NCBI GenBank assembly: GCA_964016885.1 | Contig: OZ024744.1 | Location: 99,572,001 to 99,636,000 of the forward strand | DNA: 64,000 bases | Reading direction: 5' to 3' | Source: Eledone cirrhosa | Lineage: Eukaryota | Shown: piece after piece, positions 3,560-44,165 of the stretch | Numbering within the stretch: position 1 is the stretch's first letter | Layout of the letters: the number at the start of each line of letters is the position of its first letter | Program-made: the position numbers and the translations under genes | Notes under the pieces: generated by a model | Told to the model about the DNA's origin: nothing | What the model saw: the letters and a program-made list of their open reading frames with translations, nothing else | Databases searched by the model: none

Positions 3560-3941
3560 CTGCGTTCAGTGGACAAAAACTGCAAAGGCATTCCACAGAC
3601 AATGTCCAGTGACACCCGCTGCTACAGCCACCCAACCTCGCAGGGCTCGTCCCTCAGGCAGGCTGCTGGTGTTTTGATTTTGCGGAGGAGCTCGGCAGTA
3701 CGGGGTCTTAGGATGCCTGACGTCTCGATGGTGACCGATGGTGACCGATGTGAAGAGGAAGCAGCTGGACAAGCCCTAGTATTTCTTTGTTATCTTGTCC
3801 TCTGCATTGTGGGCCACAGTACTGGGGTTCGACGCTGAAGAAACAAGCTGGAGGTGGGGAATGTGTCACAACATGTGGCGTGCCAGATGAGAGATTTACA
3901 TCCTTCGAATGAGAAGAGGGTAATTCCGTCAGGGCACTTGC
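3560..3941 (-). pseudogene. CRE-like non-LTR retrotransposon restriction-like endonuclease remnant
   Basis: Manual frameshifted translation gives GKCPDGITLF..KSLIWHATCCDT..AEDKITKKY*GL..ETSGIL.P..QRVSLDIV. This resembles the CRE RLE pattern GKRPDG..LxWDAT..K..KY..ET.G..QRIS. Confidence 0.7.
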
Positions 3942-6900
3942 CACATTAACAAGACACTGTTGAAATGTACAAAACAGTACTGTGACTGTATCACATTAAC
4001 TGTTAACATCCTGTACCACATTAAACCACAATAACAAGACACTGTTGAAAAGTACAAAACAGTACTATGACTGCATCACATTAACTCTTAACATCCTGTA
4101 CCACATGAAACCACATTAACAAGACATTGTTGAAAAGTACAAAACAGTACTATGACTGTATCACATTAACTCTTAACATCCTGTACCACATGAAACCACA
4201 TTAACAAGACACTGTTGAAATGTACAAAACAGTACTGTGACTGTATCACATTAACTGTTAACATCCTGTACCACATTAAACCACAATAACAAGACACTGT
4301 TGAAAAGTACAAAACAGTACTATGACTGTATCACATTAACTGTTAACATCCTGTACCACACAAAACCACATTAACAAGACACTGTTGAAATGTACAAAAC
4401 AGTACTATGACTGTATCACATTAACTATTAACATCCTGTACCACATGAAACCACATTAACAAGACATTGTTGAAATGTACAAAACAGTACTATGACTGTA
4501 TCACATTAACTGTTAACATCCTGTACCACATGAAACCACATTAACAAGACATTGTTGAAAAGTACAAAACAGTACTGTGACTGTATCACATTAACTATTA
4601 ACATCCTGTACCACATGAAACCACATTAACAAGACACTGTTGAAATGTACAAAACAGTACTATGACTGTATCACATTAACTCTTAACATCCTGTACCACA
4701 TGAAACCACATTAACAAGACATTGTTGAAAAGTACAAAACAGTACTATGACTGTATCACATTAACTGTTAACATCCTGTACCACGTGAAACCACATTAAC
4801 AAGACATTGTTGAAAAGTACAAAACAGTACTGTGACTGTATCACATTAACTGTTACCATCCTGTACCACATGAAACCACATTAACAAGACATTGTTGAAA
4901 AGTACAAAACAGTACTATGACTATCACATTAACTCATAACATCCTGTACCACATGAAACCACATTAACAAGACATTGTTGAAAAGTACAAAACAGTACTA
5001 TGACTGTATCACATTAACTGTTAACATCCTGTACCACGTGAAACCACATTAACAAGACATTGTTGAAAAGTACAAAACAGTACTATGACTGTATCACATT
5101 AACTGTTAACATCCTGTACCACGTGAAACCACATTAACAAGACATTCTTGAAAAGTACAAAACAGTACTGTGACTGTATCACATTAACTCTTAACATCCT
5201 GTACCACATGAAACCACAATAACAAGACATTGTTGAAAAGTACAAAACAGTACTATGACTGTATCACATTAACTGTTAACATCCTGTACCACATCAAACC
5301 ACATTAGCAAGACATTGTTGAAAAGTACAAAACAGTATTATGACTGTATCACATTAACTCTTAACATCCTGTACCACATGAAACCACATTAACAAGACAT
5401 TGTTGAAAAGTACAAAACAGTACTATGACTGTATCACATTAACTCTTAACATCCTGTACCACATGAAACCACATTAACAAGACATTGTTGAAAAGTACAA
5501 AACAGTACTGTGACTGTATCACATTAACTGTTACCATCCTGTACCACATGAAACCACATTAACAAGACATTGTTGAAAAGTACAAAACAGTACTATGACT
5601 GTATCACATTAACTGTTAACATCCTGTACCACATGAAACCACATTAGCAAGACATTGTTGAAAAGTACAAAACAGTATTATGACTGTATCACATTAACTC
5701 TTAACATCCTGTACCACATGAAACCACATTAACAAGACATTGTTGAAAAGTACAAAACAGTACTATGACTGTATCACATTAACTCTTAACATCCTGTACC
5801 ACATGAAACCACATTAACAAGACATTGTTGAAAAGTACAAAACAGTACTATGACTGTATCACATTAACTCTTAACATCATGTACCACGTGAAACCACATT
5901 AACAAGACATTGTTGAAATGTACAAAACAGTACTATGACTGTATCACATTAACTGTTAATATCCTGTACCACATGAAACCACAATAACAAGACATTGTTG
6001 AAAAGTACAAAACAGTACTATGACTGTATCACATTAACTCTTAACATCCTGTACCACGTGAAACCACATTAACAAGACATTGTTGAAATGTACAAAACAG
6101 TACTATGACTGTATCACATTAACTCTTAACATCCTGTACCACATGAAACCACATTAACAAGACATTGTTGAAAAGTACAAAACAGTACTATGACTGTATC
6201 ACATTAACTCTTAACATCCTGTACCACGTGAAACCACATTAACAAGACATTCTTGAAATGTACAAAACAGTACTATGACTGTATCACATTAACTGTTAAC
6301 ATCCTGTACCACATGAAACCACATTAACAAGACATTGTTGAAAAGTACAAAACAGTACTATGACTGTATCACATTAACTGTTAACATCCTGTACCACATG
6401 AAACCACATTAACAAGACATTGTTGAAATGTACAAAACAGTACTATGACTGTATCACATTAACTCTTAACATCCTGTACCACGTGAAACCACATTAACAA
6501 GACATTGTTGAAATGTACAAAACAGTACTATGACTGTATCACATTAACTCTTAACATCCTGTACCACATGAAACCACATTAACAAGACATTGTTGAAAAG
6601 TACAAAACAGTACTATGACTGTATCACATTCACTCTTAACATCCTGTACCACATGAAACCACATTAACAAGACATTGTTGAACAGTACAAAACAGTACTA
6701 TGACTGTATCACATTAACTCTTAACATCCTGTACCACATGAAACCACATTAACAAGACATTGTTGAAAAGTACAAAACAGTACTATGACTGTATCACATT
6801 AACTGTTAACGTCCTGTACCACGTGAAACCACAATAACAAGACATTGTTGAAAAGTACAAAACAGTACTATGACTGTATCACATTAACTCTTAACATCCT

Positions 6901-9900
6901 GTACCACATGAAACCACATTAACAAGATATTGTTGAAAACTACAAAACAGTATTATGACTGTATCACATTAACTCTTAACATCCTGTACCACATGAAACC
7001 ACATTAACAAGACATTGTTGAAAAGTACAAAACAGTACTATGACTGTATCACATTCACTCTTAACATCCTGTACCACATGAAACCACATTAACAAGACAT
7101 TGTTGAACAGTACAAAACAGTACTATGACTGTATCACATTAACTCTTAACATCCTGTACCACATGAAACCACATTAACAAGACATTGTTGAAAAGTACAA
7201 AACAGTACTATGACTGTATCACATTAACTCTTAACATCCTGTACCACATGAAACCACATTAACAAGACATTCGTAAAAAGTACAACACAGTACTATGACT
7301 GTATCACATTAACTGTTAACATCCTGTACCACATTAAACCACATTAACAAGACATTGTTGAAAAGTACAAAACAGTACGGTGACTGTATCACATTCACTG
7401 TTAACATCCTGTACCACATGAAACCACATTAACAAGACATTGTTGAAAAGTACAAAACAGTACTGTGACTGTATCACATTAACTGTTAACATCCTGTACC
7501 ACATGAAACCACATTAACAAGACATTGTTGAAAAGTACAAAACAGTACTATGACTGTATCACATTAACTGTTAACATCCTGTACCACATAAAACCACATT
7601 AACAAGACATTCTTGAAAAGTACAAAACAGTACAATGACTGTATCACATTAACTCTTAACATCCTGTACCACATGAAACCACATTAACAAGACATTGTTG
7701 AAAAGTACAAAACAGTATTATGACTGTATCACATTAACTCTTAACATCCTGTACTACATGAAACCACATTAACAAGACATTCTTGAAAAGTACAAAACAG
7801 TACTATGACTGTATCACATTAACTCTTAACATCCTGTACCACATTAAACCACATTAACAAGACATTGTTGAAAAGTACAAAACAGTACTATGACTGTATC
7901 ACATTAACTCAACATCCTGTACCACATGAAACCACACTAACAAGACATTCTTGAAAAGTACAAAACAGTACTGTGACTGTATCACATTAACTGTTAACAT
8001 CCTGTACCACATGAAACCACATTAACAAGACATTGTTGAAAAGTACAAAACAGTACTATGACTGTATCACATTAACTCTTAACATCCTGTACCACATGAA
8101 ACCACATTAACAAGACATTGTTGAAAAGTACAAAACAGTATTATGACTGTATCACATTAACTGTTAACAGCCTGTACCACATGAAACCACATTAACAAGA
8201 CATTCTTGAAAAGTACAAAACAGTACAATGACTGTATCACATTAACTCTTAACATCCTGTACCACATGAAACCACATTAACAAGACATTGTTGAAAAGTA
8301 CAAAACAGTACTATGACTGTATCACATTAACTCTTAACATCCTGTACCACATGAAACCACATTAACAAGACATTGTTGAAAAGTACAACACAGTACTATG
8401 ACTGTATCACATTAACTCTTAACATCCTGTACCACATGAAACCACATTAACAAGACATTCGTAAAAAGTACAACACAGTACTATGACTGTATCACATTAA
8501 CTGTTAACATCCTGTCCCACATTAAACCATATTAACAAGACATTGTTGAAAAGTACAAAACAGTACTGTGACTGTATCACATTAACTGTTAACATCCTGT
8601 ACCACATGAAACCACATTAACAAGACATTGTTGAAAAGTACAAAACAGTACTGTGACTATATCACATTAACTGTTAACATCCTGTACCACATGAAACCAC
8701 ATTAACAAGACATTGTTGAAAAGTACAAAACAGTACTATGACTGTATCACATTAACTGTTAACATCCTGTACCACATAAAACCACATTAACAAGACATTC
8801 TTGAAAAGTACAAAACAGTACAATGACTGTATCACATTAACTCTTAACATCCTGTACCACATGAAACCACATTAAGAAGACATTGTTGAAAAGTACAAAA
8901 CAGTATTATGACTGTATCACATTAACTGTTAACATCCTGTACCACATGAAACCACATTAACAAGACATTCTTGAAAAGTACAAAACAGTACAATGACTGT
9001 ATCACATTAACTCTTAACATCCTGTACCACATGAAACCACATTAACCAGAGATTGTTGAAAAGTACAAAACATTACTATGACTGTATCACATTAACTCTT
9101 AACATCCTGTACCACATGAAACCACATTAACAAGACATTCTTGAAAAGTACAAAACAGTACTATGACTGTATCACATTAACTCTTAACATCCTGTACAAC
9201 ATTAAACCACATTAACAAGACATTGTTGAAAAGTACAAAACAGTACTATGACTGTATCACATTAACTCAACATCCTGTACCACATGAAACCATACTAACA
9301 AGACATTGTTGAAAAGTACAAAACAGTACTATGACTGTATCACATTAACTCAACATCCTGTACCACATGAAACCACACTAACAAGACATTCTTGAAAAGT
9401 ACAAAACAGTACTGTGACTGTATCACATTAACTGTTAACATCCTGTACCACATGAAACCACATTAACAAGACATTGTTGAAAAGTACAAAACAGTACTAT
9501 GACTGTATCACATTAACTCTTAACATCCTGTACCACATGAAACCACATTAACAAGACATTGTTGAAAAGTACAAAACAGTATTATGACTGTATCACATTA
9601 ACCGTTAACAGCCTGTACCACATGAAACCACATTAACAAGACATTCTTGAAAAGTACAAAACAGTACAATGACTGTATCACATTAACTCTTAACATCCTG
9701 TACCACATGAAACCACATTAACAAGACATTCTTGAAAAGTACAAAACAGTACTATGACTGTATCACATTAACTGTTAACATCCTGTACCACATGAAACCA
9801 CATTAACAAGACATTCTTGAAAAGTACAAAACAGTACAATGACTGTATCACATTAACTCTTAACATCCTGTACCACATGAAACCACATTAACCAGACATT

Positions 9901-12900
9901 GTTGAAAAGTACAAAACATTACTATGACTGTATCACATTAACTCTTAACATCCTGTACCACATGAAACCACATTAACAAGACATTCTTGAAAAGTACAAA
10001 ACAGTACTATGACTGTATCACATTAACTCTTAACATCCTGTACCACATTAAACCACATTAACAAGACATTGTTGAAAAGTACAAAACAGTACTATGACTT
10101 TATCACATTAACTCAACATCCTGTACCACATGAAACCACACTAACAAGACATTCTTGAAAAGTACAAAACAGTACTGTGACTGTATCACATTAACTCTTA
10201 ACATCCTGTACCACATGAAACCACATTAACAAGACATTGTTGAAAAGTACAAAACAGTACTGTGACTGTATCACATTAACTGTTAACATCCTGTACCACA
10301 TGAAACCACGTTAACAAGACATTGTTGAAAAGTACAAAACAGTATTATGACTGTATCACATTAACTGTTAACATCCTGTACCACATGAAACCACATTAAC
10401 AAGACATTCTTGAAAAGTACAAAACAGTACAATGACTGTATCACATTAACTCTTAACATCCTGTACCACATGAAACCACATTAACCAGACATTGTTGAAA
10501 AGTACAAAACATTACTATGAGTGTATCACATTAACTCTTAACATCCTGTACCACATGAAACCACATTAACAAGACATTGTTGAAAAGTACAAAACAGTAC
10601 TATGACTGTATCACATTAACTGTTGACATCCTGTACCACATGAAACCACATTAACAAGACATTGTTGAAAAGTAGAAAACAGTACTATGACTGTATCACA
10701 TTAACTCAACATCCTGTACCACATGAAACCACACTAACAAGACATTGTTGAAAAGTACAAAACAGTACTGTGACTGTATCACATTAACTGTCAACATCCT
10801 GTACCACATTAACAAGACATTGTTGAAAAGTACAAAACAGTACTATGACTGTATCACATTAACTCTTAACATCCTGTACCACATGAAACCACATTAACAA
10901 GATATTGTTGAAAAGTACAAAACAGTACTATGACTGTATCACATTAACTCTTAACATCCTGTACCACATGTAACCACATTAACAAGACATTGTTGAAAAG
11001 TACAAAACAGTACTATGACTGTATCACATTAACTCTTAACATCCTGTACCACATGAAACCACATTAACAAGACATTGTTGAAAAGTACAAAACAGTACTA
11101 TGACTGTATCACATTAACTCAACATCCTGTACCACATGAAACCACACTAACAAGACATTGTTGAAAAGTACAAAACAGTACAATGACTGTATCACATTAA
11201 CTCTTAACATCCTGTACCACATGAAACCACATTAACCAGACATTGTTGAAAAGTACAAAACATTACTATGACTGTATCACATTAACTCTTAACATCCTGT
11301 ACCACATGAAACCACATTAACCAGACATTGTTGAAAAGTACAAAACAGTACTATGACTGTATCACATTAACTGTTAACATCCTGTACCACATGAAACCAC
11401 ATTAACAAGACATTCTTGAAACGTACAAAACAGTACAATGACTGTATCACATTAACTCTTAACATCCTGTACCACATGAAACCACATTAACAAGACATTG
11501 TTGAAAAGTACAAAACATTACTATGACTGTATCACATTAACTGTTGACATCCTGTACCACATGAAACCACATTAACAAGACATTGTTGAAAAGTACAAAA
11601 CAGTACTATGACTGTATCACATTAACTGTTGACATCCTGTACCACATGAAACCACATTAACAAGACATTGTTGAAAAGTACAAAACAGTACTATGACTGT
11701 ATCACATTAACTCAACATCCTGTACCACATGAAACCACACTAACAAGACATTGTTGAAAAGTACAAAACAGTACAATGACTGTATCACATTAACTCTTAA
11801 CATCCTGTACCACATGAAACCACATTAACCAGACATTGTTGAAAAGTACAAAACATTACTATGACTGTATCACATTAACTCTTAACATCCTGTACCACAT
11901 GAAACCACATTAACCAGACATTGTTGAAAAGTACAAAACAGTACTATGACTGTATCACATTAACTCTTAACATCCTGTACCACATGAAACCACATTAACA
12001 AGACATTGTTGAAAAGTACAAAACAGTACTGTGACTGTATCACATTAACTGTTAACATCCTGTACCACATGAAACCACATTAACAAGACATTGTTGAAAA
12101 GTACAAAACAGTACTGTGACTGTATCACATTAACTCTTAACATCCTGTACCACATGAAACCACATTAACAAGACATTGTTGAAAAGTACAAAACAGTACT
12201 ATGACTGTATCACATTAACTGCTAACATCCTGTACCACATGAAACCACATTAACAAGACATTGTTGAAAAGTACAAAACAGTACTGTGACTGTATCACAT
12301 TAACTCTTAACATCCTGTACCACATGAAACCACATTAACAAGACATTGTTGAAAAGTACAAAACAGTACTATGACTGTATCACATTAACTCTTAACATCC
12401 TGTACCACATGAAACCACATTAACAAGACATTGTTGAAAAGTACAAAACAGTATTATGACTGTATCACATTAACTGTTAACATCCTGTACCACATGAAAC
12501 CACATTAACAAGACATTGTTGAAAAGTACAAAACAGTACTATGACTGTATCACATTAACTGTTGACATCCTGTACCACATGAAACCACATTAACAAGACA
12601 TTGTTGAAAAGTACAAAACAGTACTATGACTGTATCACATTAACTCAACATCCTGTACCACATGAAACCACACTAACAAGACATTGTTGAAAAGTACAAA
12701 ACAGTACAATGACTGTATCACATTAACTGTTAACATCCTGTACCACATGAAACCACATTAACCAGACATTGTTGAAAAGTACAAAACATTACTATGACTG
12801 TATCACATTAACTCTTAACATCCTGTACCACATGAAACCACATTAACCAGACATTGTTGAAAAGTACAAAACAGTACTATGACTGTATCACATTAACTCT

Positions 12901-13948
12901 TAACATCCTGTACCACATGAAACCACATTAACAAGACATTGTTGAAAAGTACAAAACAGTACTGTGACTGTATCACATTAACTGTTAACATCCTGTACCA
13001 CATGAAACCACATTAACAAGACATTGTTGAAAAGTACAAAACAGTACTGTGACTGTATCACATTAACTGTTAACATCCTGTACCACATGAAACCACATTA
13101 ACAAGACATTGTTGAAAAGTACAAAACAGTACTATGACTGTATCACATTAACTGCTAACATCCTGTACCTCATGAAACCACATTAACAAGACATTGTTGA
13201 AAAGTACAAAACAGTACTGTGACTGTATCACATTAACTCTTAACATCCTGTACCACATGAAACCACATTAACAAGACATTGTTGAAAAGTACAAAACAGT
13301 ACTATGACTGTATCACATTAACTCTTAACATCCTGTACCACATGAAACCACATTAACAAGACATTGTTGAAAAGTACAAAACAGTATTATGACTGTATCA
13401 CATTAACTGTTAACATCCTGTACCACATGAAACCACATTAACAAGACATTCTTGTAAAGTACAAAACAGTACTATGACTGTATCACATTAACTCTTAACA
13501 TCCTGTACCACATGAAACCACATTAACCAGACATTGTTGAAAAGTACAAAACATTACTATGACTGTATCACATTAACTGTTAACATCCTGTACCACATGA
13601 AACCACATTAACTCTTAACATCCTGTACCACATGAAACCACATTAACAAGACATTGTTGAAAAGTACAAAACAACACTATGACTGTATCACATTAACTCT
13701 TAACATCCTGTACCACATGAAACCACATTAACAAGACATTGTTGAAAAGTACAAAACAGTACTATGACTGTATCACATTAACTCTTAACATCCTGTACCA
13801 CATGAAACCACATTAGCAAGACATTGTTGAAAAGTACAAAACAGTACTATGACTGTATCACATTAACTGTTAACATCCTGTACCACATGAAACCACATTA
13901 GCAAGACATTCTTGAAAAGTACAAAACAGTACTATGACTGTAACACAT
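3941..13948. repeat. 85-bp satellite, ~10.0 kb, ~118 monomers
   Basis: Monomer TTAACTCTTAACATCCTGTACCACATGAAACCACATTAACAAGACATTGTTGAAAAGTACAAAACAGTACTATGACTGTATCACA. Anchors at 3941, 4026, 4111 and 4196, with recurrent 83-bp deletion variants. Confidence 0.98.
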
Positions 13949-15465: not shown

Positions 15466-17200
15466 ACATCATCATCATTTTACATCCGCTTTTCCCTGCT
15501 TGCAAGGGTGGGATGGGTCCTATTCAGCACAGCATCTCTGCACTTGCCACGGTCCTTTGTCATCTCTTCAGTGAGTTCCAGCGATCTGAGGTCTGCTCTC
15601 ACCACCTCCGCCCATGTTTTTTGAGGTCTACCTCTACTGCGTCTTCCTTCTACTGGGATTTCTTGGCACTTCTTTACCCAGCGGTCATCCTCCATGCACA
15701 TCACATGTCCATACCATCGCAGTCTTCTCTCCCACACACCACAACTTATCCCTCTCGTCTATGCTTGGTCGTTCACGCACATTGACATTGCACATCCAAT
15801 GGAGCATGCTTGCTTAATTTCTCTCCCATGATTGCATATCCTCTGCAGTTGCTGCGCATGTCTCACTACGATGCAGCATCGCGCATCTTACACAGGCATT
15901 ATATAACTGGCCTTTCGTATGCAGGGAGAAACCCTTCTTTGTCAACAGAAGAAGCAGCTCCCTAAACTTCTTCCAATCCGTCCTTATTCTAGATACTATG
16001 GCCTCGGAACACCCCCACCCCCCCTCCCATGCTAATCTGATCTCCTAGGTACCGGAAGCTATCCACCACTTCTATAGCGCCCTCTTGCATTTGAAAAATG
16101 TGTCTATCAGTGCGACTTCTACTGTCTAATTTCCCTGTACATCTACTGCATACATATTTCTCCCAGCTATCCCGCTACATCTCTTGTGTACCCAGGATCT
16201 GCATTGTGTGCATTTTATAGAATTTATGCCAGTTCCTTTTCTGCATTTCAAACATGGCCATTTCCCTGACGGAATCAGGGTTTTGTCCTCTTTTCTACTC
16301 ATCAACACTTTTGTCTTAGCTAGGTTCACTGTCAGTCCTCTTGCTTCCAACTGCTGTTTCCATAGCCAGAATAATTTATTCTCTAGCTCCTCTACTGATT
16401 CTGCTATAAGAACCAGATCATCAGCATAGAGAAGTTCCCATGGACAGCCAGTCTTAAACTCCTGTGTTATGGCTTGGAGGACTATAAGGAACAAGAGGGG
16501 GCTGAGGACCGAACCCTGATATACTCCTACTTGTATCTGGAATTCCTCACTAAACTCCATTCCTACCCTCACTTTATTGACAGCACCTCTGTACATAGCT
16601 TGCACTGTCCTCACAAGCCATTCCTCTACCCCCTAGTTTCCTTAGGGACCATCAGATGACAGATCGGGGTACCCTATCAAAGGTTTTCTCTAGGTCAACA
16701 AAAGCTAAGTTTAGTGGCTTATTCTTCTCTAAGAACCTCTCTTGTAATTGCCTCACTAAGAAGAGGGCATCTGTTGTACTTTTCCCAGGCACAAAACCAA
16801 ACTGCATCTCATCTAGTTTGACCCTTTCTCTAATTAGTTGTGCTAGCACTCTTTCGGTCACTTTCATAACCTGATCCATCAGTTTTATACCCCTATAATT
16901 GCTCCTCTCCAGAGCATCCCCTTTACCTTTGTAGCAATTTATGAGAATACTGCTGCACCAGTCTTTGGGTATGACACCACCATATATAGCCTGATTGATG
17001 ATGCGTGCAACCAGCTTAGTGCCTACGTTCTCTGATGCCTTCAGCATCTCAGCAACTATTCCCGATGGTCCGGCAGCCTTACCATTTTTCATTTCCCTAA
17101 TCGCCTCTTGGACCCTATATTCGTCAATCTCAATAGCTGGTCCCTCTGTCGGGTCTACTGAGGGTAATTTCTCTCTCTCTCATTCATTCTCCACATTCAT
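15465..17200 (-). mobile_element. 5'-truncated, disrupted RTE-clade LINE (RT and C-terminus)
   Basis: ORFs 16652-17092 (KGKGD..NYRGI..QFGF..DLEKTFD), 16126-16614 (QGSVLSP..YADD) and 15480-15737 (RRLRWYGHV). Ends in a (GAT)n tail. Confidence 0.95.
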
Positions 17201-18971: not shown

Positions 18972-20970
18972 CACCACATGACCATACCAGTACAATTGTC
19001 TATCTTGTTACAATACATTCAGTTCATCTTATACTCAGGTGACTTGTACTCTGTCATTCACACACACTAACATTACATATCCAGTGAAGCATACATGCTA
19101 CATTTCTTTTTAGCTAACGTAGATCTTCTGTACTCAGGGTTCATGTCTCGCTGTCATGTAGCATAACAGTTCAAACATGGACATCATATAATCTAACCTT
19201 CACTTTGAGTGAGAGGTCCTTTGTTACCAGCAGAGATAACAGCTCCCTAAACTTCTTCCATCATAAACTCAGGCTGTAACACTTTCAGTACATCCTTCTC
19301 CACTGCTAATGAGGTCAACTAGATAGAAAAAGCTTTCTACTACTTCTAGTGAACTATCTAAACATTTGAGAGAGCAGCTTTACTGTTGACTACTCCTGTG
19401 TACCTGTCATATATAAAGTCTACCTTCTCTGTCAGCCTACCTGTGATCCCACATCTCTTGTGTGTCTACCTGTTCACAAGAGAGCAGCTTTACTGTTGAC
19501 TACTCCTGTGTACCTGTCATATATAAAGTCTACCTTCTCTGTCAGCCTACCTGTGATCCCACATCTCTTGTGTGTCTACCTGTTCACAAGAGAGTAGCTT
19601 TACTGTTGACTACTCCTGTGTACCTGTCATATATAAAGTCTACCTTCTCTGTCAGCCTACCTGTGATCCCACATCTCTTGTGTGTCTACCTGTTCACAAG
19701 AGAGTAGCTTTACTGTTGACTACTCCTGTGTACCTGTCATATATAAAGTCTACCTTCTCTGTCAGCCTACCTGTGATCCCACATCTCTTGTGTGTCTACC
19801 TGTTCACAAGAGAGTAGCTTTACTGTTGACTACTCCTGTGTACCTGTCATATATAAAGTCTACCTTCTCTGTCAGCCTACCTGTGATCCCACATCTCTTG
19901 TGTGTCTACCTGTTCACAAGAGAGTAGCTTTACTGTTGACTACTCCTGTGTACCTGTCATATGTAAAGTCTACCTTCTCTGTCAGCCTACCTGTGATCCC
20001 ACAACATCTCTTGTGTGTCTACCTGTTCACAAGAGAGTAGCTTTACTGTTGACTACTCCTGTGTACCTGTCATATATAAAGTCTACCTTCTCTGTCAGCC
20101 TACCTGTGATCCCACAACATCTCTTGTGTGTCCATTGTTCACAAGAGAGCAGCTTTACTGTTGACTACTCCTGTGTACCTGTCATATATAAAGTCTACCT
20201 TCTCTGTCAGCCTACCTGTGATCCCACAACATCTCTTGTGTGTCCATTGTTCACAAGAGAGCAGCTTTACTGTTGACTACTCCTGTGTACCTGTCATATA
20301 TAAAGTCTACCTTCTCTGTCAGCCTACCTGTGATCCCACAACATCTCTTGTGTGTCCATTGTTCACAAGAGAGCAGCTTTACTGTTGACTACTCCTGTGT
20401 ACCTGTCATATATAAAGTCTACCTTCTCTGTCAGCCTACCTGTGATCCCACAACATCTCTTGTGTGTCCATTGTTCACAAGAGAGTAGCTTTACTGTTGA
20501 CTACTCCTGTGTACCTGTTATATATAAAGTCTACCTTCTCTGTCAGCCTACCTGTGATCCCACATCTCTTGTGTGTCTACCTGTTCACAAGAGAGTAGCT
20601 TTACTGTTGACTACTCCTGTGTACCTGTCATATATAAAGTCTACCTTCTCTGTCAGCCTACCTGTGATCCCACAACATCTCTTGTGTGTCTACCTGTTCA
20701 CAAGAGAGCAGCTTTACTGTTGACTACTCCTGTGTACCTGTCATATATAAAGTCTACCTTCTCTGTCAGCCTACCTGTGATCCCACTACATCTCTTGCGT
20801 GTCTACACTTGATATACCATACAGAGTTTCCTCCAATCTCTTTTCTATATATTGAGCATAGCTATCTCCCTGGTGGTAACAGCATTACCTTCTTTATCAC
20901 TTACTAAAACTGTACTCCTTGCTAGGTTTACTTTGAGGCTCTTTAATTCAAGGTTGTACTACAGCTCCCA
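18972..20970 (-). mobile_element. Degenerate RTE LINE fragment hosting an internal tandem array
   Basis: Both flanks of the array translate on the minus strand as decayed RTE: LYWYGHV near 18980, WKKFRELL near 19250 and LKVNLA near 20930. Confidence 0.75.
19371..20807. repeat. 110-113-bp tandem repeat, 13 copies, amplified from the Cys-rich RTE segment
   Basis: Units start at 19371, 19481, 19591 and so on. The minus strand reads (W)THKRC(C)GITGRLTEKVDFIYDRYTGVVNSK, matching WVHKRCSGITGKLTRNIDFICGRCSGAISS of the 35-38 kb LINE. Confidence 0.95.
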
Positions 20971-23521: not shown

Positions 23522-23534
23522 TTATATATATATA

Positions 23535-23724
23535 TATGAAAAGATTCAGGACCCCGACGGCTGAGCTCCAGCCGTTTCGACAGCTAAATCCAATATAGCT
23601 GTCGAAACGGCTGGAGCTCAGCCGTCGGGGTCCTGAATCCTTTCATATTACCTACTCTACTACCCCAAGTATCGAGTACTCTGGTACCATGGTCCACTTG
23701 GTATCTTACCACACCCTCTTTGTT
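23535..23724. mobile_element. Mini fold-back element (~52-bp arms, 9-nt loop, one-sided tail), same family as 27337-28854
   Basis: 23535-23586 is the reverse complement of 23596-23648 with one mismatch. The tail 23649-23724 resembles the reverse complement of 27337-27416. TA tracts lie on both sides. Confidence 0.85.
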
Positions 23725-24741: not shown

Positions 24742-25086
24742 GGAAGCACATGGCTCAGTGGTTAGAGCATTGGCCTTGCAATCGAAAGGTTGTGAGTTCA
24801 ATTCTCAGACCGGGTGATGTGTTGTTTCCTTGAGCAAGACACTTCATTTCACATTGCTCCAGTTTACTCAGCTGTAGAAATGAGATGATAGGGACTGGAG
24901 TCCATATCATTCCACTGCAAAGTGGTCGTGGAGGTGCCACGGCAAAAAAGCACCCAGCACTCACTGTAAATGAGGTTGGTGTTAGGAAGGGCATCCAGCT
25001 GTAGAAATCAAGCCAGAATCAGTTCCCGTCCCACCCTTGCAAGCAGGGAAAAGCAGACGTAAAATGAAATGATGATGAAATGATGA
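24742..25086 (+). mobile_element. tRNA-derived SINE of the same family, head-to-head with 23748-24081
   Basis: A box TGGCTCAGTGG, B box GAGTTCAATTC, and the same body and tail. Confidence 0.88.
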
Positions 25087-26159: not shown

Positions 26160-27210
26160 TCAATATCAAATAACAAACATTCAGGATTTGGGCACCATGG
26201 CCCATTCGAGAAGAGAATTACTGTTTGCGGAGACATATCCGGGTGTGGGTGGTTTGTCCAGGATTACTTGGAGGAATTTGTCCAAAGACTTCTTGAATTT
26301 TGTGTGGTCAGTTTCTGTTTTGACGTGTCCTGGTGTGATGTTGAAGAGAGCAGGGCCAATTGAGGTGAAATAATTGTGCCGTATTGTTATTATGAGTTGC
26401 GATTTAGATTTTTGTTTGGGACGGATAGCACGGGGCCCAAGCCTTGGGTGTATTTTGATTTTGAAGGTGATGCTAACATCATTTGGGCAGTGCTGATGAA
26501 ACATTTTCCACATCATGCAGATAATATAACGCTCACGGCGACGTTGGAGTGAGTAAAGTTTCAGCTTTTCTAGTCGACCCCAGTAGTCAAGGTCTGACAT
26601 GCCATCTATCTTTTTCGTGATTGCCCTTTGGGGAGCTTCAAGTTTCATGATACTTTGTTTCGTGTGGGGAGACAACAGTGGACAACAGTATTCAAGGTGT
26701 GGTCGGGCAAAATTGGAGAAGAGAAGGATAATGGTGTGGGAATCTCTCAACTGGAAGGTTCTGAGGATCCAGGAAAACATTCTGCGGGCCATGTCAACTT
26801 TGCTGCTTATATGCGTGGCCCAGCTTATGTTGCTGTCCACGGTTTCTCCCAAGTCTCTGATGTTGTTAGATGCCATGAGAGTTTCACCGGAGGGAAGGGA
26901 GTACGGGAGTTTCAGAGCATCCTCTTTTCCAAAGTGGATCAGTTCGGATTTGTCTTCGTTCAGTAACATGTTGTTCTTTTCCGCCCATTGGGTAACAGCC
27001 AGTAGGTCTGACTGAAGGCTTATCCGGTCATCCACGCCATTGATGACCTTTTGAAGCTTGGAATCATCAGCGAAAATTCTAATGTTGCTGTGTTTGATGA
27101 TGTCAGTGATGTCATTAATATAGATGATGAAGAGAAATGGGCCCAACACAGCGCCTTGTGGGACCCCACTACTGACTTTGGCTGGGCTGGATTTCACTCC
27201 TTCAACTACA
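26160..27210 (-). mobile_element. 5'-truncated CR1-group LINE (RT C-terminal half, 338-aa open frame)
   Basis: ORF 26181-27197 contains [39 protein letters not shown] and RLEKLKLYSLQRRRER. Confidence 0.93.
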
Positions 27211-27429
27211 ACATATATACATATATATATACTTATATATATTTATATATATACATATATATATACATATATATACATATATATATACATATATATATAT
27301 ATATACATATATATATACATATATATATACATATATAACGAAAGAAATGTGGTAAGGAACCAGGTGGACCATAACGCACCAAAGTACTCAATACTTAGGG
27401 TAGTAGAGTGGGTAATAGGAACCAGTAAG

Positions 27430-27524
27430 ACCCCGACGGCTGAGCTCAAGCCGTTTCGACGGCTAAATTCTGGACTAAATGAAAATTTATCCTGGTATAT
27501 AAATAGCCGAGCTTCTCAAGGGGT
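27430..27524 (-). ncRNA. Type I hammerhead ribozyme candidate, U3-A8 core variant
   Basis: ACCCC TTGAGAA G-CT-CGGCTA...TAGCCG-T-C GAAACGGCT-TGAGCTC-AGCCGTC GGGGT: helix I of 5 bp, helix III of 6 bp, GUC cleavage site. Confidence 0.65.
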
Positions 27525-28745
27525 AATTCCATATATGGTCAAAGTGATTGTCACAAGGATTGGTCACAAGTTAGTAGTAATTCTGTGATGGCAAATTAGT
27601 AGGGGAGAGGGTGGCTAAACCTGCCAGTAGGAGAAAAAGGGGAGGGGGTGGAGTAGACCCAATCATGCGTTGGTAGTGCCGGCTACAGCTGGGCATGAGG
27701 TCAAAGAAGATACTAGGGAGGGGGAGGGGGAGGAAGTCGAAATGGTAAGTAGGACAATGAAGGGTAAAAATATATATATATGAAAAAAAAAATACTGAGA
27801 GTGATAAAAAGCGAATAAATGTAAAGAAAAAAATATAAGCAATTTCTACGACCTAAGTCTCTAGCTATTGCTAGGCTAGATAAATAAATAAAGAAAGAAA
27901 TAAAGAAATAAAGAAACGAGATAAAGAAATAAAAAAATAAGTAAATAAACTAGGTGGGACGAAATAGGAAAGGACCCTTTTAAGAGGTATAAGTACGTAT
28001 ATCATACGGTGACGGGTCAACAATGGGGGCCAAAATACTAAAGAAACTACCACGAAATAATTAATAAAGGTTTCTACCCCGGGCACAAGGCCAGCAACCA
28101 CCCAGTGCAGAAAAGTAAACTAGTACGAGATAATAATTCTGAGTCCCGAAAAAAATATACTAATGCTAACTCTAAGGGTACCGCCACGCTACAAAAGTTC
28201 TTATACAAGCTACATGAAAGTTCGTACGAGGTAAAAGTAGAATACGGAAAAATAAATTCAGAATCCACCCCGCCCAAAAGAAAAGAGAAGAAAGAAATAC
28301 TGAAACGAGAAATTAAGGCAGAGGTGCCCCTAAGAAATATAGAAGGCACGGAAAAAAGGGGGAGCGGTCGGATAAGGGGGCAAGTATCCGAGGTCTAACA
28401 CAACTGCTATAGAAAGCGGAGTCCGCCAACTCTATCATAGACTAGGGGAGGGGGTGGGGGTAATGAGGCTACAAGGGGCCAAAGGGCTGCCTCGGGTGGG
28501 CGAGAAAAATACGGCGACAAAGAAAAAGAACGACTTCCTCCCCCTCCCCCTCGCTAGTATCTTCTTTGACCTCATGCCCAGCTGTAGCCGGCACTACCAA
28601 CGCATGATTGGGTCTACTCCACCCCCTCCCCTTTTTCTCCTACTGGCAGGTTTAGCCACCCTCTCCCCTACTAATTTGCCATCACAGAATTACTACTAAC
28701 TTGTGACCAATCCTTGTGACAATCACTTTGACCATATATGGAATT

Positions 28746-28839
28746 ACCCCTTGAGAAGCTCAGCTATTTATATACCAGGATAAATTTTCATTTAGTCCAG
28801 AATTAGCCGTCGAAACGGCTTGAGCTCAGCCGTCGGGGT
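28746..28839 (+). ncRNA. Second copy of the U3-A8 hammerhead candidate
   Basis: Same fold in the right arm, with one extra helix II mismatch (CAGCTA instead of CGGCTA). Confidence 0.62.
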
Positions 28840-28849
28840 CTTACTGGTT

Positions 28850-29128
<279 letters not shown>

Positions 29129-29149
29129 TGTTGCAACATCCTAGACCTT

Positions 29150-35245: not shown

Positions 35246-38200
35246 GTTTAACGTCCATCTTCCACGCTTGCATGGGTTTGGATGGGAGTTTTCCCACTTG
35301 AGGCAAGATTGGTTGTCTTGCTCATATAGGACTGTCTGGCGGGTTTTCTACGGCTGGATGCCCTTCCTAACACCAACCACGTTTACAGTGTGGACTGGGA
35401 GGTTTTTACTGTGTTACCTACACGGCCACATTACAGCGTGAACTGTGTGTTTTTTTGTTGTGACACCTACACGACCTCATTTGTTTCGGACTGGATGTTG
35501 TGGTACCAACATAGCTTTACATCGAAAGGGGTGGTGTGGATGGGGTGGGGATAGTGGGACGGGGTGTATTTTGTTAGAGGTGCCTACTGACTGTAGGTTT
35601 CGCTTTGTACTTAGGCAAGGTGGGTCTTCTGTATGACTGTGTAGCGCCAAAGATCTCGGTCCAGTGACATTGTCTAGGAGAGGTGTAAGTGTGTGAGGTC
35701 GGAATTTATCAAGTCGTCCCAGGTTTTTCTGGGTCTGCCTACTCCGTGGCTACCGTCTATTTTTATCGCCCTGCACTTTTTTATACAGCTGTCGTCTTTC
35801 ATGCGCATCACATGACCATACCAACGTAGTCTTCTCTCGAGTAAACAACATCTGATCCCTCTTATTCCTAATTTCTCACTTAGTTCGTTTATGCTTTGCG
35901 GAGCATGCAAGCTTCGTTTCTCTCCAGTCTGTGTATATCCTCTGCACACAATGCCCAGGTCTCACTGCCATGTAACATTGCTGTTCGTATGCAGGCATCA
36001 TACAACCTGCCTTTCATTTTTAGAGAGAACCCTTTAGCGGCCAATAGTGGTATAAGCTCTCTGAACTTTTTCCATCCCGTTCTGACTCTAGCTATTGTAC
36101 TTTCAGAGCACCCTCCCCCACTGCTAATTTTGTCACCCAGGTAATGGAAGGTGTCCACTATTTCTATAGAACCATCTGTGCAATGGAATGAGCTAGTATT
36201 CTGTGGGCACTTGCTGCTACTTATTGCACCAGAGCACCGGCCACATATAAAATCTATATTCCTAGTTAGCTTACCTGTGATCCCACTACATCTTTTATGC
36301 ACCCATACTTTGCATTTGGAACATAAAATTGAATTTCTGCCTACTCCTTTCCTACACACTGAGCATGGCCATTTCCCAGATGGGACCGGTGCCCTATTTT
36401 CCTTCCTTCAAACTAGAACTTTAGTCTTAGACAAGTTAACTTTAAGGCCTTTTGATTCTAGGCCATGCTTCCATGGTTGGAATTTTTTCTCTAGTTCAGC
36501 CATTGATTCAGCTATGAGCGTTAGATCATCTGCATATAGGAGTTCCCATGGGCAGCCAGTCTTGAACTCCTCTGTTATAGCCTGAAGGGCAATAATAAAT
36601 AGTAGGGGGTTAAGAACGGAGCCCTGATGAACACCAACTTTTACGCTAAACTCTTCACTATATTCGTTGTTAATTCTAACCTTGCTGACTGTTTCTTTAT
36701 ACATGGCTTGTATAGCTCTCACAAGCCATTCATCAACACCTAGTTTTCTAAGCGCCCACCAGATAATGGAGTGGGGGACTCTGTCAAAGGCTTTCTCCAA
36801 GTCAACAAAAGCTAAGTATAGGGGTTTACTTTTAGCTAGGTACTTCTCTTGTAGTTGTCGTACAATGAAAAGAGCGTCTGTGGTACTTTTACCTGACACA
36901 AACCCGAACTGCATTTCATCTAGATCAATTCGTTCTCTGATTAATTGTGCTATTACTTTTTCTGTGACCTTCATGACCTGGTCGATTAATTTAATGCCTC
37001 TATAGTTACCCCTATCAAGAGCATCTCCTTTACCTTTGTAGCAGTTAATGATGATGCTGCTATGCCAGTCCTTCGGAACGGCCCCATTCTGTATGACTTG
37101 GTTTACTATCCGGGTGACCATAGTGTGTCCCACCGTTCCAGATGCTTTCAGCATTTCACCAACTATTTCCGAAGGCCCAGCCGCCTTATCCGTCTTCATA
37201 TCTCTGATTGCCTTACTTATTATACTACCTTCAACTAGCACTGCTGGTCCCTCTATTGGATCGATGTGGGAGAGACTGTCTTTCTCCCATTTATTCTCCT
37301 CATTTAGTAGCCTTTCGTAGTGACACTTCCAAGCTACCTTCTTATCAGCGTCAGTGATGGCAAGTACACCATCATCATTAAGGACACACTTCTCCCCGAC
37401 AATATCACGGTTTTTCTTGACACATTGCCTAGCAATCCTGAACACCTCACGTTTTTGGTCCTCGCATTGTAGATCATGCTTGAACTTTCTTTCCTCTGCT
37501 TCCCTTCTTGCGAAGTACACTTGTCTCCTAGCTTCCCTCCTGGCCACTTGATAGTCTTCTCTACTTCCCCCATCCCGCCATACTTTCCAAGCCTGCTTTT
37601 TGGCCTTAATTGACTCCTCCACCTTACTATTCCACCACCAAGTTACTCTCCTCCTGCCTATAGGCCTGCTCCAGCCACAGATTTCATGTCGCCTTGAGCA
37701 GGTTAACTTTCAGGAATTCCCACTGTTCCTCTATATTGTACGACTCTAATTGCTCTTCCTTACTGTCGAAAGCATCAAGTAATATGCTTTTAAATTTATT
37801 ACTGGCTGTGGGGTCCTTTAGCTTCCATATTTTTCTCCTGAGGATAGTACTCCTCTGTTGTCGAGTATGTCTTGTCCTGACTATGAGGTCGCTGACTATG
37901 AGTCTATGTTGGGAGGTGCATTCTTCATGGGGGAGGGATTTAGTGTTTACAACAGACACTCTATCACGTCTTCTGGTAAGGATAAAATCTATCTGACTGG
38001 CGTGTTCCCCTGATCTATAGGTGATCAAGTGATTGTCTCGTTTTTTGAAGTTAGTGTTACAGATAGTTAGGTTATTTGCGTCGCAGAATTCCAGGATTCT
38101 GGAGCCTTCTTCATTTCTAGTACCAAACCCATAGCCTCCATGGATTCCATCATAGCCATTACAATGTTGTCCAACGTGACCATTTAGGTCGCCAGTAATA

Positions 38201-38841
38201 ATTATGTAGTCACTGTCAGTTATTTGGGAGGTAGTGAGCATCAAGGTTTCATAGAATCTGTCTTTTATAATGCCAGGCAGTCCGGTTTGGGGTGCATACG
38301 CAGATATTACTGTCACAGTAGTTCTATTTAGGAGAAGTCTTATTTTAATTATTCTGTCGTTCACTCTATTTACGTCTATTATCTTATCCACCCATTTTTC
38401 TGCTAACATGATTCCTACCCCACCCAGCCCATTTTCAAATCCCACCCAGAAAAGCTTATAGCATCGTTTTTTACCCACAATGAATCTAGCAGACCCACCC
38501 CTCCACCTGGTCTCTTGGATACAGCAAACATCAACCTCCTTACGTTCAAGCATTTCTACAACCTCGTTAGAGCAACCTTTTAAGGTGCCTACATTCATGG
38601 TACCAACTCTGAAGTTTTGGATTGCGTTTGGTGGGTGGGAACGGTGGGGCGCGGGGAGGGGTGAGGGGGATGGGGTTGGGGTTATGTTGGCCATCTGCGG
38701 CCGAAACAAAGAGGAGGAGTCCTTGTCTTTTCGTCCGGCAGCATGTGGTGAATTTGTCTTTATCTTTAGCATTGTCACTGAGTGTCCAGATTTTTCAGAC
38801 TCTCCAGAATTCCATAGTCCATCCATCATATCGGCAAGCAA
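35218..38841 (-). mobile_element. Near full-length RTE-clade LINE (APE + RT), about three disablements
   Basis: APE motifs in 37684-38841 (TMNV, CIQET, SAYAP, GDLNGH, IDFIL, SQHR) and RT in 36408-37622 (YADD). There is a frameshift near 37684, a stop at 36408 and a ~31-nt deletion near 35900. 3' UTR and (GAT)n tail are present. Confidence 0.97.
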
Positions 38842-38964
38842 CCTGAAGTGATAGCATAAGCCGCTGACTTATGATTGGTCCTAATAATAATGGTGGAGAG
38901 TGGGGGCGGGTGGGAGGGGTATGGGGTAGTTAGCGAGAGGGTTTAAATGAAATCTTTGAATTTT

Positions 38965-40535: not shown

Positions 40536-41816
40536 CAGGCATGTCAAACTGGGGGTCTTCTGACGGCCACATGAGTCACATATGTGTTATCTGAGGGCCA
40601 CATGAGTCACATATGTGTTGTCTGAGAGCCACATGGGTCACATATGTGTTGTCTGACGGCCACATGGGTCACATATGTTTTGTCTGAGGGTCACATGTGT
40701 GTTGTCTGAGGGCCACATGGTTCACATATGTGTTGTCTAAGGGCCAGATAGGTTACATATGTGTTGTCTGAGGGCCACATGAGCCACGTATGTGTTGTTT
40801 GAGGGCCACATGGTTCACATATGTGTTGTCTGAAGGTCACATGGGTCACATATGAGTTGTCTGAGGGTCACATGAGTCACATATGTGTTGTCTGAGGGCC
40901 ACATGGTTCACATATGTGTTGTCTAAGGGCCAGATAGGTTACATATGTGTTGTCTGAGGGCCACATGAGCCACGTATGTGTTGTTTGAGGGCCACATGGG
41001 TCACAAATGTGTTGTCTGAAGGTCACATGAGTCACATATGTGTTGTCTGAGGGCCAGATGGGTCACATATGTGTTGTCTGGGTGTCACATGAGTCACATA
41101 TGTGTTGTCTGAGGACCACATGAGTCACATTTGTGTTGTCTGAAAGCCACATGGGTCACATTTGTGTTGTCTGAAGGCCACATGAGTCACATATGTTTTA
41201 TCTGAGAGCCACATGGGTCACAAATGTGTTGTCTGAGGGCCACATGGTGCACATAGGTGTTGTCTGAGGGCCAGATGGGTCACACATGTGTTGTCTGAGG
41301 GTCACATGGTTCACATATGTGTTGTCTGAGGGCCACGTGGGTCACATATGTGTTGTCTGAGGGTCAATGAGTCACATATGTGTTGTCTGAGGACCACATG
41401 GGTCACATATGTGTTGTCTGAGGGCCACATGGTTCACATATGTGTTGTCTAAGGGCCAGATAGGTCACACATGTGTTGTCTGAGGGCCACATGGGTCACA
41501 AATGTGTTGTCTGAGGGCCACATGAGTTACACATGTGTTGTCTGAGGGCCACATGAGTCACATATGTGTTGTCTGGGGGCCACATGAGTCACATATGTGT
41601 TGTCTGAGGACCACATGAGTCACATTTGTGTTGTCTGAAGGCCACATGGGTCACATATGTGTTGTCTGAGGGCAACACATGACAACTAATTGCGCACATT
41701 ACAACTAATTTTTTAAATTTTATATTACGGTCGCGCTGTAAAATCCTTTGTGCAAGCCGGAGGTGTGCTTGTAAAGGGCCGTATGTGGCTTGAGGGCCAT
41801 ATGTTACACATGCCTG
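40536..41816. mobile_element. hAT (Charlie-like) MITE with an expanded internal minisatellite
   Basis: TIRs CAGGCATGTCAAAC and GTTACACATGCCTG. The 8-bp flanks GTTTATAG and CTTTAGAG match at 6 of 8 positions. Confidence 0.75.
40558..41680. repeat. 31-bp minisatellite, ~36 copies
   Basis: Unit GGCCACATGAGTCACATATGTGTTGTCTGAG, with anchors at 40565, 40596 and 40627. Confidence 0.95.
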
Positions 41817-42443: not shown

Positions 42444-42689
42444 ACACTGTCTATTTGGCATGTCAAAGGACTTTGATCCAGCCAATAGTGAGGATGTATT
42501 ATCAACAATTATCAGAAAATGGTTATTGTCCTTATTAATTTACAAAAATATTATCAAAGTCTTTTTGTGAGGATATGAGAATCCTCCTCCTTGTCATCAT
42601 CGCCATCATCATCATTCTCATCATCAACATACTCATCATCAACACCATCATCATTATCAACAGCATCATCACCATCAGTGTTTCATCGT

Positions 42690-44165
42690 GGCTCCAGTAC
42701 AACCACCTCACATAGTGGACTGAGTGATTTTGGTTGTGGCACCTACACTACCACCTTACAGAGTTGACTGGGGGCTTTTTGTTGTGGTACCAGCACAACC
42801 ACCTCACATAGTGGACTGAGTGCTTTTTGTTGTGTCACCAGCACAACCACCTTACAGAGTGGACTGGGGTGCTTTTTGTTGTGGTACCAGCACAACCACC
42901 TTACAGAGTTGACTGGGGTGCTTTTTGTTGTGGTACCAGCACAACCACCTTACAGAGTTGACTGGGGTGCTTTTTGTTGTGTCACCAGCACTACCACCTT
43001 ACAGAGTGGACTGGGGGCTTTTTGTTGGGGTACCAGCACAACCACCTTACAGAGTGGACTGGGGTGCTTTTTGTTGTGGTACCAGCACAACCACCTTACA
43101 GAGTTGACTGGGGTGCTTTTTGTTGTGGTACCAGCACAACCACCTTACAGAGTTGACTGGGGTGCTTTTTGTTGTGTCACCAGCACAACCACCTTACAGA
43201 GTTGACTGGGGTGCTTTTTGTTGTGGTACCAGCACAACCACCTTACAGAGTTGACTGGGGTGCTTTTTGTTGTGGTACCAGCACAACCACCTTACAGAGT
43301 TGACTGGGGTGCTTTTTGTTGTGTCACCAGCACTACCACCTTACAGAGTTGACTGGGGTGCTTTTTGTTGTGGTACCAGCACAACCACCTTACAGAGTGG
43401 ACTGGAGGCTTTTTGTTGGGGCACTAACACTACCACCTTACAGAGTGGACTGGGGGCTTTTTGTTGTAGTACCAGCACAACCACCTTACAGAGTGGACTG
43501 GGTGCTTTTTGTTGTGTCACCAGCACAACCACCTTATAGAGTGGACTGGGGGCTTTTTGTTGGGGCACTAAGACTACCACCTTACAGAGTGGACTGGGTG
43601 CTTTTTGTTGTGTCACCAGCACAACCACCTTACAGAGTGGACTGGGGGCTTTTTGTTGGGGCACTAACACTACCACCTTACAGAGTGGATAGGGGTGCTT
43701 TGTGTTGTGTCACCAGCACAACCACCTTACAGAGTGGACTGGGTGATTTTTGTTGTGGTACCAGCACAACCACCTTACAGAGTGGACAGGGGGCTTTTTG
43801 TTGGGGCACTAGCACAACCACGTTACAGGGTAGGCGGGGGGGGGGGGGGGCTTTTTGTTGCTGTGTCACCATTACAATCACCTTACAGAGTAGACTGGGG
43901 CTTTTTATTGTGGCACCAGCACTACCACCTTACCTAGTGGACTGGGAGCTTTTTGTTGTGGCACCAGCACTACCACCTTACCTAGTGGACTGGGAGCTTT
44001 TTGTTGTGGCACCAGCACTACCACCTTACCTAGTGGACTGAGAGCTTTTTGTTGTGACACCAGCACTACCACCTTACAGTTTTGACTGGGGGCTTTTTGT
44101 TGTGTCACCAGTACAGAGTAGACTGGGTACTTTTTGTTGCAGCACCAACACTAGCACCTTTTGGA
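42690..44165. repeat. 48-49-bp minisatellite, ~30 copies, derived from an RTE 3'-UTR sub-repeat
   Basis: Unit GCTTTTTGTTGTGGTACCAGCACAACCACCTTACAGAGTGGACTGGGGT, compared with 21262-21360 and the reverse complement of 18720-18800. Confidence 0.9.

Follow-up and report, generated by a model that had tools for sequence, protein, structure and literature searches.

Genomic junctions suggest in vivo cleavage at a variant hammerhead ribozyme in a Hydra-clade Penelope-like retroelement of Eledone cirrhosa

Introduction

Hammerhead ribozymes are known from Penelope-like retroelements (PLEs), among them the Cercyon elements of Schistosoma, in which about 1,300 hits with U3-A8 cores were reported in a paper that also describes opposite-strand hammerhead pairs 100-700 bp apart, a palindromic helix III and loop, and a dimer hypothesis (Cervera and de la Pena, 2014; PMC4209133). 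A natural U3-A8 core was likewise reported by Perreault et al. (2011). Inverted, 5'-truncated copies with a tail at one end are standard in PLEs (PMC8557442), and in the PLE of the anole the tail is defined by two internal start sites of the reverse transcriptase (RT), and the ribozyme needs the protein (PMC11167929). On cutting by PLE hammerheads in vivo, these papers speak of an 'absence of in vivo evidence' (PMC4209133) and call the matter 'still unclear' (PMC8557442). Here we analyze a stretch of 64,000 nucleotides from Eledone cirrhosa (assembly GCA_964016885.1, contig OZ024744.1, positions 99,572,001 to 99,636,000; hereafter the window), in which an annotation made from the letters alone (the sequence-only reading) had proposed a hammerhead with a U3-A8 swap and a palindromic helix III on both strands of one element.

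The swap, the palindrome and the opposite-strand layout were all published in PMC4209133; they are not novel and, on their own, would be ordinary. What was inserted here, in (TA)n, is a Hydra-clade PLE that has lost its 5' part and has two arms; the kind of element and of ribozyme is known, and the family and the variant are new. We consider it probable that a slow, dimer-favored ribozyme cuts a minority of the element's RNAs in vivo at C17 and that the RT jumps from the cut 5' end to an RNA 3' end.

Results

A two-armed insertion with a hammerhead in each arm

The insertion and its target comprise the following features, numbered from the first nucleotide of the window:

27213..27336, no strand: (TA)n target, left flank (from the sequence).
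27337..28531, minus strand: 5'-truncated retroelement copy with the last 1.1 kb of the 3' untranslated region (UTR), the hammerhead and a tail of 98-100 nt (93.6% to 2493-3662 of the full-length unit plus leader, copy L131).
28531..28852, plus strand: inverted second arm with the final 304 nt of the unit including the hammerhead, ending 18-20 nt beyond the cut site (alignment to the unit).
28853..29129, no strand: (TA)n target, right flank (repeat scan).

The tail at the end of the minus-strand copy is the 5' leader of the next unit and, in tandem copies, continues into the open reading frame (ORF). The arms (27415-27739 and 28531-28854) are 99.08% complementary, with 3 differences in 325 columns, and the terminal branch of this insertion in a 48-copy tree measures 0.006 against a median of 0.032, in agreement with the earlier view that the insertion is young. 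Inverted pairs with varying junction points were also found at L003, L006, L008, L011 and L022. A miniature inverted-repeat or fold-back DNA transposon, which would have terminal inverted repeats of fixed length, was rejected, as arm length and junction vary with each insertion and the arms are pieces of a retroelement unit.

The hammerhead parts are:

28746..28839, plus strand: type I hammerhead with U3-A8 core UUGAGAA at 28751-28757 and predicted cut after C17, which is C28834 (sequence, folding).
28746-28750 and 28835-28839, plus strand: helix I, ACCCC/GGGGT (sequence).
28812-28815, plus strand: GAAA (sequence).
28815..28833, plus strand: helix III of 6 bp (28815-28820/28828-28833), whose 7-nt loop includes GAGCUC, a self-complementary hexamer, at 28822-28827 (sequence).
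28805..28820, plus strand: competing hairpin AGCCGU-CGAA-ACGGCU, which would bury the GAAA core in the monomer (predicted).
27430..27524, minus strand: type I hammerhead with U3-A8 core at 27519-27513, helix II intact, and predicted cut between 27435 (C17) and 27434 (sequence, folding, pair counts).

The helices, UUGAGAA core, GAAA and GUC named by the sequence-only reading all lie in their places on both strands. Three helices surround U4 G5 A6, A9, G12 A13 A14, the pair A15.1-U16.1 and H17, with helix I open, as in a type I hammerhead. In the plus arm, A at 28762 replaces the G of the minus arm and of most relatives, and one helix II pair is thereby broken. The palindrome claimed for the helix III region is present, although 12 of its 18 bases are merely the helix III stem itself and the additional self-complementarity is the 6-nt GAGCUC of the loop. 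No curated Rfam hammerhead model matches the window, whether the gathering score or an E limit of 10 is applied. The motif is nonetheless not a product of chance, because a pattern that fixed the helices alone returned 4,426 matches in the genome and its reversed control returned 0.

Junctions at the predicted cut site

We number positions from the predicted cut, with C17 the last base before it and +1 the first base after it. Two of 30 ORF-bearing copies start at the cut site, and we therefore examined junctions directly. In the first 100 of 362 copies leading into the ORF (a script aligned 53 of them, the other 47 were read by eye as intact, and two alignment overruns were corrected by hand), 24 junctions fell within 40 nt of the cut site and 7 of these in the interval -3 to +1, which corresponds to a binomial p of about 1e-4 for an interval chosen afterwards. 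A pattern search for starts preceded by four foreign bases returned 195 at +1, 24 at +5 and 25 at -5. When the first 100 of the +1 starts were inspected, 39 had one extra G, 5 had an insert after ribozyme sequence, and 56 had no ribozyme upstream. Because the extra-G class is explained by slippage within the run of G, we did not count it; with the stringency of the pattern roughly allowed for, +1 starts were in 5- to 10-fold excess over +5 and -5.

Extra bases at the C17|+1 bond itself were rare, with 82 rows carrying 2-30 of them against 33,162 seamless junctions. Sixty-five of these rows were local duplications, G-run expansions or a 2-nt insert. The other 17 rows, representing 16 insertions, held inserts of 5-30 nt that were 78-100% A/U and, except for one 5-mer, absent from the unit. 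These tailed inserts were A-rich on the RNA strand; one contained 28 consecutive A, and 8 of the 16 began with U. The same search at two control bonds found no A/U tails (0/52 at -6|-5 and 0/13 at +6|+7), and the inserts there, read by eye, were all local duplications or run expansions. Among the 82 rows we also noted about 30 copies with a 21-nt duplication from GAAAC to C17, which is possible because AGCCGUC is repeated in helix II and helix III.

Three of the 16 tailed insertions have a C3·A8 core (L414/L469, L461 and L468). A partner arm was visible in 7 of the 16: in six it was leader-only and started at +1, and in one (L462) it shared the insert. Insertions ended at +18-20 or at +98-100, in (TA)n. 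Short stubs that lack a ribozyme (L360, L362, L363, L364, L423 and L424) consist of pieces from +1 to +n placed head to tail, with n about 64 to 290. L423 and L424 are neighbors (G000:C2 near 332357000 and 332360700) built of three leader pieces that run to about +64-66 before the next begins at +1, and their joints differ by two G.

Taken together, the A/U tails and the preferred starts at +1 are likely a genomic record of in vivo cleavage after GUC, where the sequence-only reading had placed it, and this record likely extends to copies whose core pair is mismatched.

Positions 3 and 8 alternate between a pair and a mismatch

Exact patterns with a pyrimidine at position 3 and a purine at position 8 returned 3,213 matches, of which 2,154 were U3-A8, 1,032 C3·A8, 23 U3·G8 and 4 C3-G8, so that the canonical CUGANGA core is nearly absent. 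The share of C3 copies lies between about 17% and 32%, a range given because the exact pattern misses one young U3 subfamily.

We built the tree from 48 copies hand-picked from 213 for length and spread (at most 620 nt of each; positions 3, 7 and 8 were masked), rooted it on the most distant subfamily and took subfamilies as its grades. The tree was ladder-like, with 24 of 45 inner branches strongly supported. Along it the order of states is U3-A8, with a U3·G8 side clade of three copies, then U3-A8 again, a long C3·A8 grade, and finally the U3-A8 copies that include the window insertion; canonical C3-G8 never founds a subfamily. A single clade of the C3 grade was rejected (p-AU 1e-73), for a group named post hoc from the tree in which two U3 copies inside and one C3 copy outside were placed by position. 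The mismatched core thus did not stop amplification.

The swap had been described as a covariant. Within the family we looked for covariation between C3-G8 and U3-A8 and did not find it, as A8 stays constant while position 3 switches between U and C. In the U3 subfamilies a shifted register lacking position 7 was ruled out, since that column takes all four bases. In the C3 grade, G7 was present in 95 of the first 100 matches read by eye, and a shifted register with C3-G7 pairing is possible there.

Constraint on the motif

Majority states across 11 subfamily grades showed 0 changes in 12 core columns and 0 in 10 helix I columns, whereas 271 columns upstream averaged 1.62 changes each over the same grades. 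Loop III had 1 change in 7 columns, with 6 of the 7 constant. Position 7 changed three times, and A, C, G and U all occur there across subfamilies; this variation beside an otherwise constant core is as expected of a type I hammerhead in the U3-A8 register. With the core left free in the pattern, it was recovered in nearly all of the first 100 of the 4,426 matches, which had U3 in 81, C3 in 17 and G3 in 2 by eye and elsewhere only scattered changes. The expectation that family copies conserve UUGAGAA failed at positions 3 and 7, a failure that does not refute the ribozyme. In a 40-copy alignment (A1), 87.3% of cells pair, and helix II contains three pairs changed on both sides.

Predicted folds favor a dimer

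Folds were computed from nearest-neighbor energies without tertiary contacts. The predicted share of the active secondary structure was 3e-5 for the plus arm and 0.02 for the minus arm. The competing hairpin had a predicted probability of 0.99 in the plus arm, 0.90 in the minus arm, 0.80 in L005, and 0.83 and 0.58 in two C3 copies; in five copies from other subfamilies it was 0.00-0.21. When two copies of the minus arm were linked, a double hammerhead was the predicted minimum-energy fold (-69.8 against 2 x -30.1 kcal/mol), and the same was true in 6 of 8 other family copies; L190, also selected, had no stretch suitable for folding and was left out. The GAGCUC loop pairs in trans in the predicted two-copy fold, and folding also predicted an extension of helix I and distal hairpins in helix II. 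For the intact arm, the dimer action suggested earlier is therefore also the predicted lowest-energy arrangement.

Family and clade of the element

In the 3.0-Gb genome the arm has at least 1,632 candidate copies. Longer copies extend upstream into the ORF. Those of full length stand in partial or complete tandems of a unit of about 3.55 kb, and arrays run head to tail at a spacing of 3,531-3,546 nt. In tandem copies the start codon lies about 190 nt after the cut site, beyond the hammerhead and leader. The 3' UTR is 1.2 kb and the tail about 80 nt. A single ORF encodes an RT followed by a C-terminal GIY-YIG-type endonuclease, seen as a 731-codon open frame in L136 with YRDD and VIY...YIG. The protein has KRLRWR at the position of the RWK motif and HSDKTGN, with DKT for DKG (both in P0001), the CxCX5C linker CNCPDRSIC, CNLCSEE (CxxC, E) and LNK...CKH (N, CxH), and it lacks CCHH.

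All of the Hydra-clade marks listed in section 11 of PMC8557442, where they are defined, are present in this protein. By these motifs and by a likeness, judged by eye, to Hydra-1_Obim and Hydra-2_Amil, the family is assigned from sequence to the Hydra clade; Neptune and Nematis were considered and dropped, as the Hydra marks fit. The CUGANGA core, which is a trait common to the clade, was found there with a CUGANGA descriptor and is not defining (PMC8557442). Partial tandem pseudo-LTRs, an inverted 5'-truncated copy and a one-ended tail give the insertion structure of a PLE, and (TA)n is the target both in the window flanks and at most of 30 loci. A non-LTR retrozyme, a short non-coding tandem with a hammerhead in each repeat, was set aside since here the tandem unit is a 3.5-kb coding element. 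Searches of Pfam and of PDB sequences gave no match to the ORF, and a protein collection search found 391 relatives among 8,000 scored candidates, almost all of them unnamed, with 38-57% identity among the 120 listed.

The youngest subfamily, which is likely recently active, includes arrays of four full-length units head to tail (G000:C1:91476610-91487384; C1:437200226-437210966) and has acquired an A10.2-U11.2 pair along with a helix III G·U pair. Many young insertions consist of two short arms with 60-100 nt between them. The oldest sampled subfamily likewise persists mostly as fold-back stubs of 150-250 nt that turn near the helix II loop (758 genome matches to one pattern), and the window has one of them:

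23528..23713, no strand: 186-nt fold-back stub of the oldest sampled subfamily, with the 3' half of the hammerhead on both strands and the tail on plus (sequence comparison).

A different PLE-like fragment bearing GIY-YIG adjoins one copy; next to two others lies a related family, in which the linker between RT and endonuclease is longer (L061 182-1063, L065 5743-6498 and L070 4913-6074, all on the minus strand).

Other features of the window

The remainder of the window holds fragments of long interspersed elements (LINEs), satellites and a sequence resembling a short interspersed element (SINE):

26181-27242, 16652-17179 and 35889-38868, minus strand: LINE-type fragments, with RVT_1 matches and an endonuclease, RT and PHD-finger set (profile matches).
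3941-13948, 51512-61540, 19369-20806, 40559-41677 and 42688-44115, no strand: satellite arrays with periods of 85, 45, 110, 31 and 48, respectively (repeat scan).

The SINE-like sequence is related to a tRNA and forms an inverted pair (23740-24065/24725-25070) around a 640-nt (TA)n, ending in (GAT)n; an Rfam tRNA match lies within it at 24751-24808 (29.3 bits).

Discussion

A minority of templates may be cut

In the mechanism that we favor, the RT would start at two internal leader sites, one for each arm, which the ends at +18-20 and +98-100 fit. Most templates would be tandem RNAs that are uncut or have been rejoined without trace, and on an uncut tandem template both arms would run through a seamless ribozyme, as they do in the window. 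On a cut template the RT would meet a free end at +1 and then stop, fold onto the other arm or jump to an RNA 3' end. The 5' product of the cut may sometimes be tailed with U and A before such a jump, and a tailed C17 end would then leave an A/U insert. U3-A8 and C3·A8 cores would be slow rather than dead, and the predicted competing hairpin would keep the young subfamilies dependent on dimers. Cut templates make up a visible share of roughly a few percent, in which precise jumps or ligation would not show, since they too would be seamless.

A further reading, in which we place about as much trust as doubt, is that the genome preserves a germ-line fossil record of cleavage: C17 would be the cut, the 3' end would be tailed by host enzymes, and the RT would rebuild the pseudo-LTR by an end-to-end jump. 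The long span of C3·A8 would then mean that a hammerhead is active in nature although its positions 3 and 8 form no Watson-Crick pair, or although C3 pairs with G7 in a shifted register. In a dimer the core would come from the partner RNA, so that another subfamily's core could have made the cut in a tailed C3·A8 copy, which is less likely given the ladder-like tree.

Several observations weigh against these interpretations. The 17 tailed rows stand against 33,162 seamless junctions, and the tails therefore speak for a small minority of events. In extra-G insertions with a visible partner arm, that arm was seamless in 5 of 5, with G-run slippage possible. The covariation in helix II comes from one subfamily split, that is, about three events; a shuffle test of pair counts in the 40-copy alignment was not significant (113 of 500), and RNAalifold recovered helices II and III and did not recover helix I in it. 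Conservation is inflated because many copies were retrieved with patterns that fix core letters, and the core-free pattern fixes the helices. From the literature, ribozyme mutants of the anole PLE insert normally in vitro and no reads begin or end at the cut (PMC11167929). In a deep mutational scan of another hammerhead, the G3-C8 swap was reported as the only one to rescue, and other single or double changes in the CUGA region were low (PMC9901934). Lastly, the L462 insert shared by both arms, and the one junction repeated two or three times in L364 and L360, fit a circular template equally well.

Alternative explanations

The strongest competitor, which we regard as possible and clearly less probable than the mechanism above, is that the ribozyme cuts most RNAs and a host ligase closes unit-length circles that are reverse-transcribed more than once round, so that seamless junctions would reflect ligation. 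Such a model was proposed in PMC4209133, and RtcB circularizes retrozyme RNA in vitro (PMC7229834). Here, repeated passage round a circle would account for the regular spacing of the head-to-tail arrays and for the joints +160|+1 in L364, present three times, and +161|+1 in L360, present at least twice, along with the L462 insert. Yet 6 of 7 tailed insertions have a second arm that ends at +1, an outcome not expected from a closed circle, and the joints of L423 and L424 differ by two G between rounds. Moreover, a tailed 3'-OH and a 5'-OH are not known to be substrates of RtcB.

It is improbable, in our view, that the motif does not cut at all and is instead a conserved fold, such as a signal for packaging or for protein binding, where a stalled RT adds bases and then either restarts or dissociates. 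The roughly 1,000 C3·A8 copies that form a long grade of the source lineage, and the scarcity of canonical C3-G8 (4/3,213), would suit an inactive motif, as would the anole PLE, which did not need ribozyme activity in vitro (PMC11167929); short-homology fold-backs also occur at -5 and +5. However, the inserts lie at the bond that the hammerhead predicts and at neither control bond, they are A-rich, with a 28-A run in one and an initial U in half of them, as expected of RNA 3' tails, and it is the catalytic columns that never vary.

A transcription start at +1 combined with a separate 3'-end signal is very unlikely: PLE promoters do lie within the pseudo-LTR (PMC6765202) and a start site would place 5' ends at one position, but 3' ends exactly at C17, adjoining +1, would be left unexplained in 16 insertions. 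Equally remote is the sequence-only reading's own model of a symmetric unit whose transcripts from either strand cut themselves at mirror sites, for although both arms carry the full motif, they are the inverted 5'-truncated duplicate usual in PLEs, and the helix II pair is broken in the plus arm. Whichever strand is transcribed, the antisense arm is made first in read-through RNA, and in the minimum-energy fold 93 of the 94 ribozyme bases pair with it, over a distance of more than 500 nt. As the arms would form a 324-bp duplex, symmetric cutting of such RNA is unlikely on this modeling; the junction between the arms differs in every insertion examined, and the symmetry is therefore a by-product of integration.

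Comparison with known systems

In the literature searched, which left most subscription papers outside it, neither tails at the cut site of a PLE nor a C3·A8 lineage in nature turned up. Such tails offer a test of in vivo cutting that needs only a genome, could be applied to any large PLE family and could distinguish jumps from ligation. The succession from U-A to C·A and back to U-A provides a natural series on the minimum activity that a retroelement ribozyme needs, and it includes an entire grade that escapes searches for CUGANGA as well as those for UUGANAA.

The closest described ribozymes are the PLE hammerheads of PMC4209133, which share with ours U3-A8, opposite-strand pairs, a palindromic helix III, a long helix II, a short helix I and the conserved G10.1-C11.1. 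In contrast, helix III is here long enough to form in a monomer, as in their fungal and protist PLEs, and a competing hairpin is predicted to make young subfamilies depend on dimers; the C3·A8 lineage and the in vivo traces are not described in the text consulted.

The Hydra-clade families described by Craig et al. (2021; PMC8557442), such as Hydra-1_Obim, Hydra-1_Amil and Penelope-1_SK, have the same RW[K/R], DKT, CxCX5C and CxxC/CxH motifs without CCHH, the same (TA)n target, a tail, copies that are inverted and 5'-truncated, and a type I hammerhead close to the 3' end. Our unit, at about 3.55 kb with a 1.2-kb 3' UTR, is longer than the families listed there (1.1-3.0 kb), and its tail of about 80 nt exceeds the usual 30-40. 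In all 26 rows of Hydra hammerheads in File S2 of that paper the core is CUGANGA, stem III has 3-4 bp and the loops 1-3 nt, whereas our family has U3-A8 or C3·A8, a helix III of 5-6 bp and a hexamer palindrome. Hydra-1_Obim, compared by eye, is homologous and belongs to another family (2,507 bp, with a different hammerhead).

Poseidon PAc of Anolis (Frangieh et al., 2024; PMC11167929) likewise has two internal RT starts that define the tail, an AT-rich target and a ribozyme near the start of the ORF. It differs in its canonical C3-G8, in a cut that lies inside the ORF and in the lack of RNA-read ends at the cut, which in our family is marked by junctions in the genome. Non-LTR retrozymes (Cervera and de la Pena, 2020; PMC7229834; bioRxiv 10.64898/2026.07.22.740005) share type I hammerheads, dimer cleavage, tandem units and a proposed origin from PLEs. 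Unlike those short non-coding tandems, which have a ribozyme in each unit, the family described here is autonomous, and its short tandem stubs are without a ribozyme.
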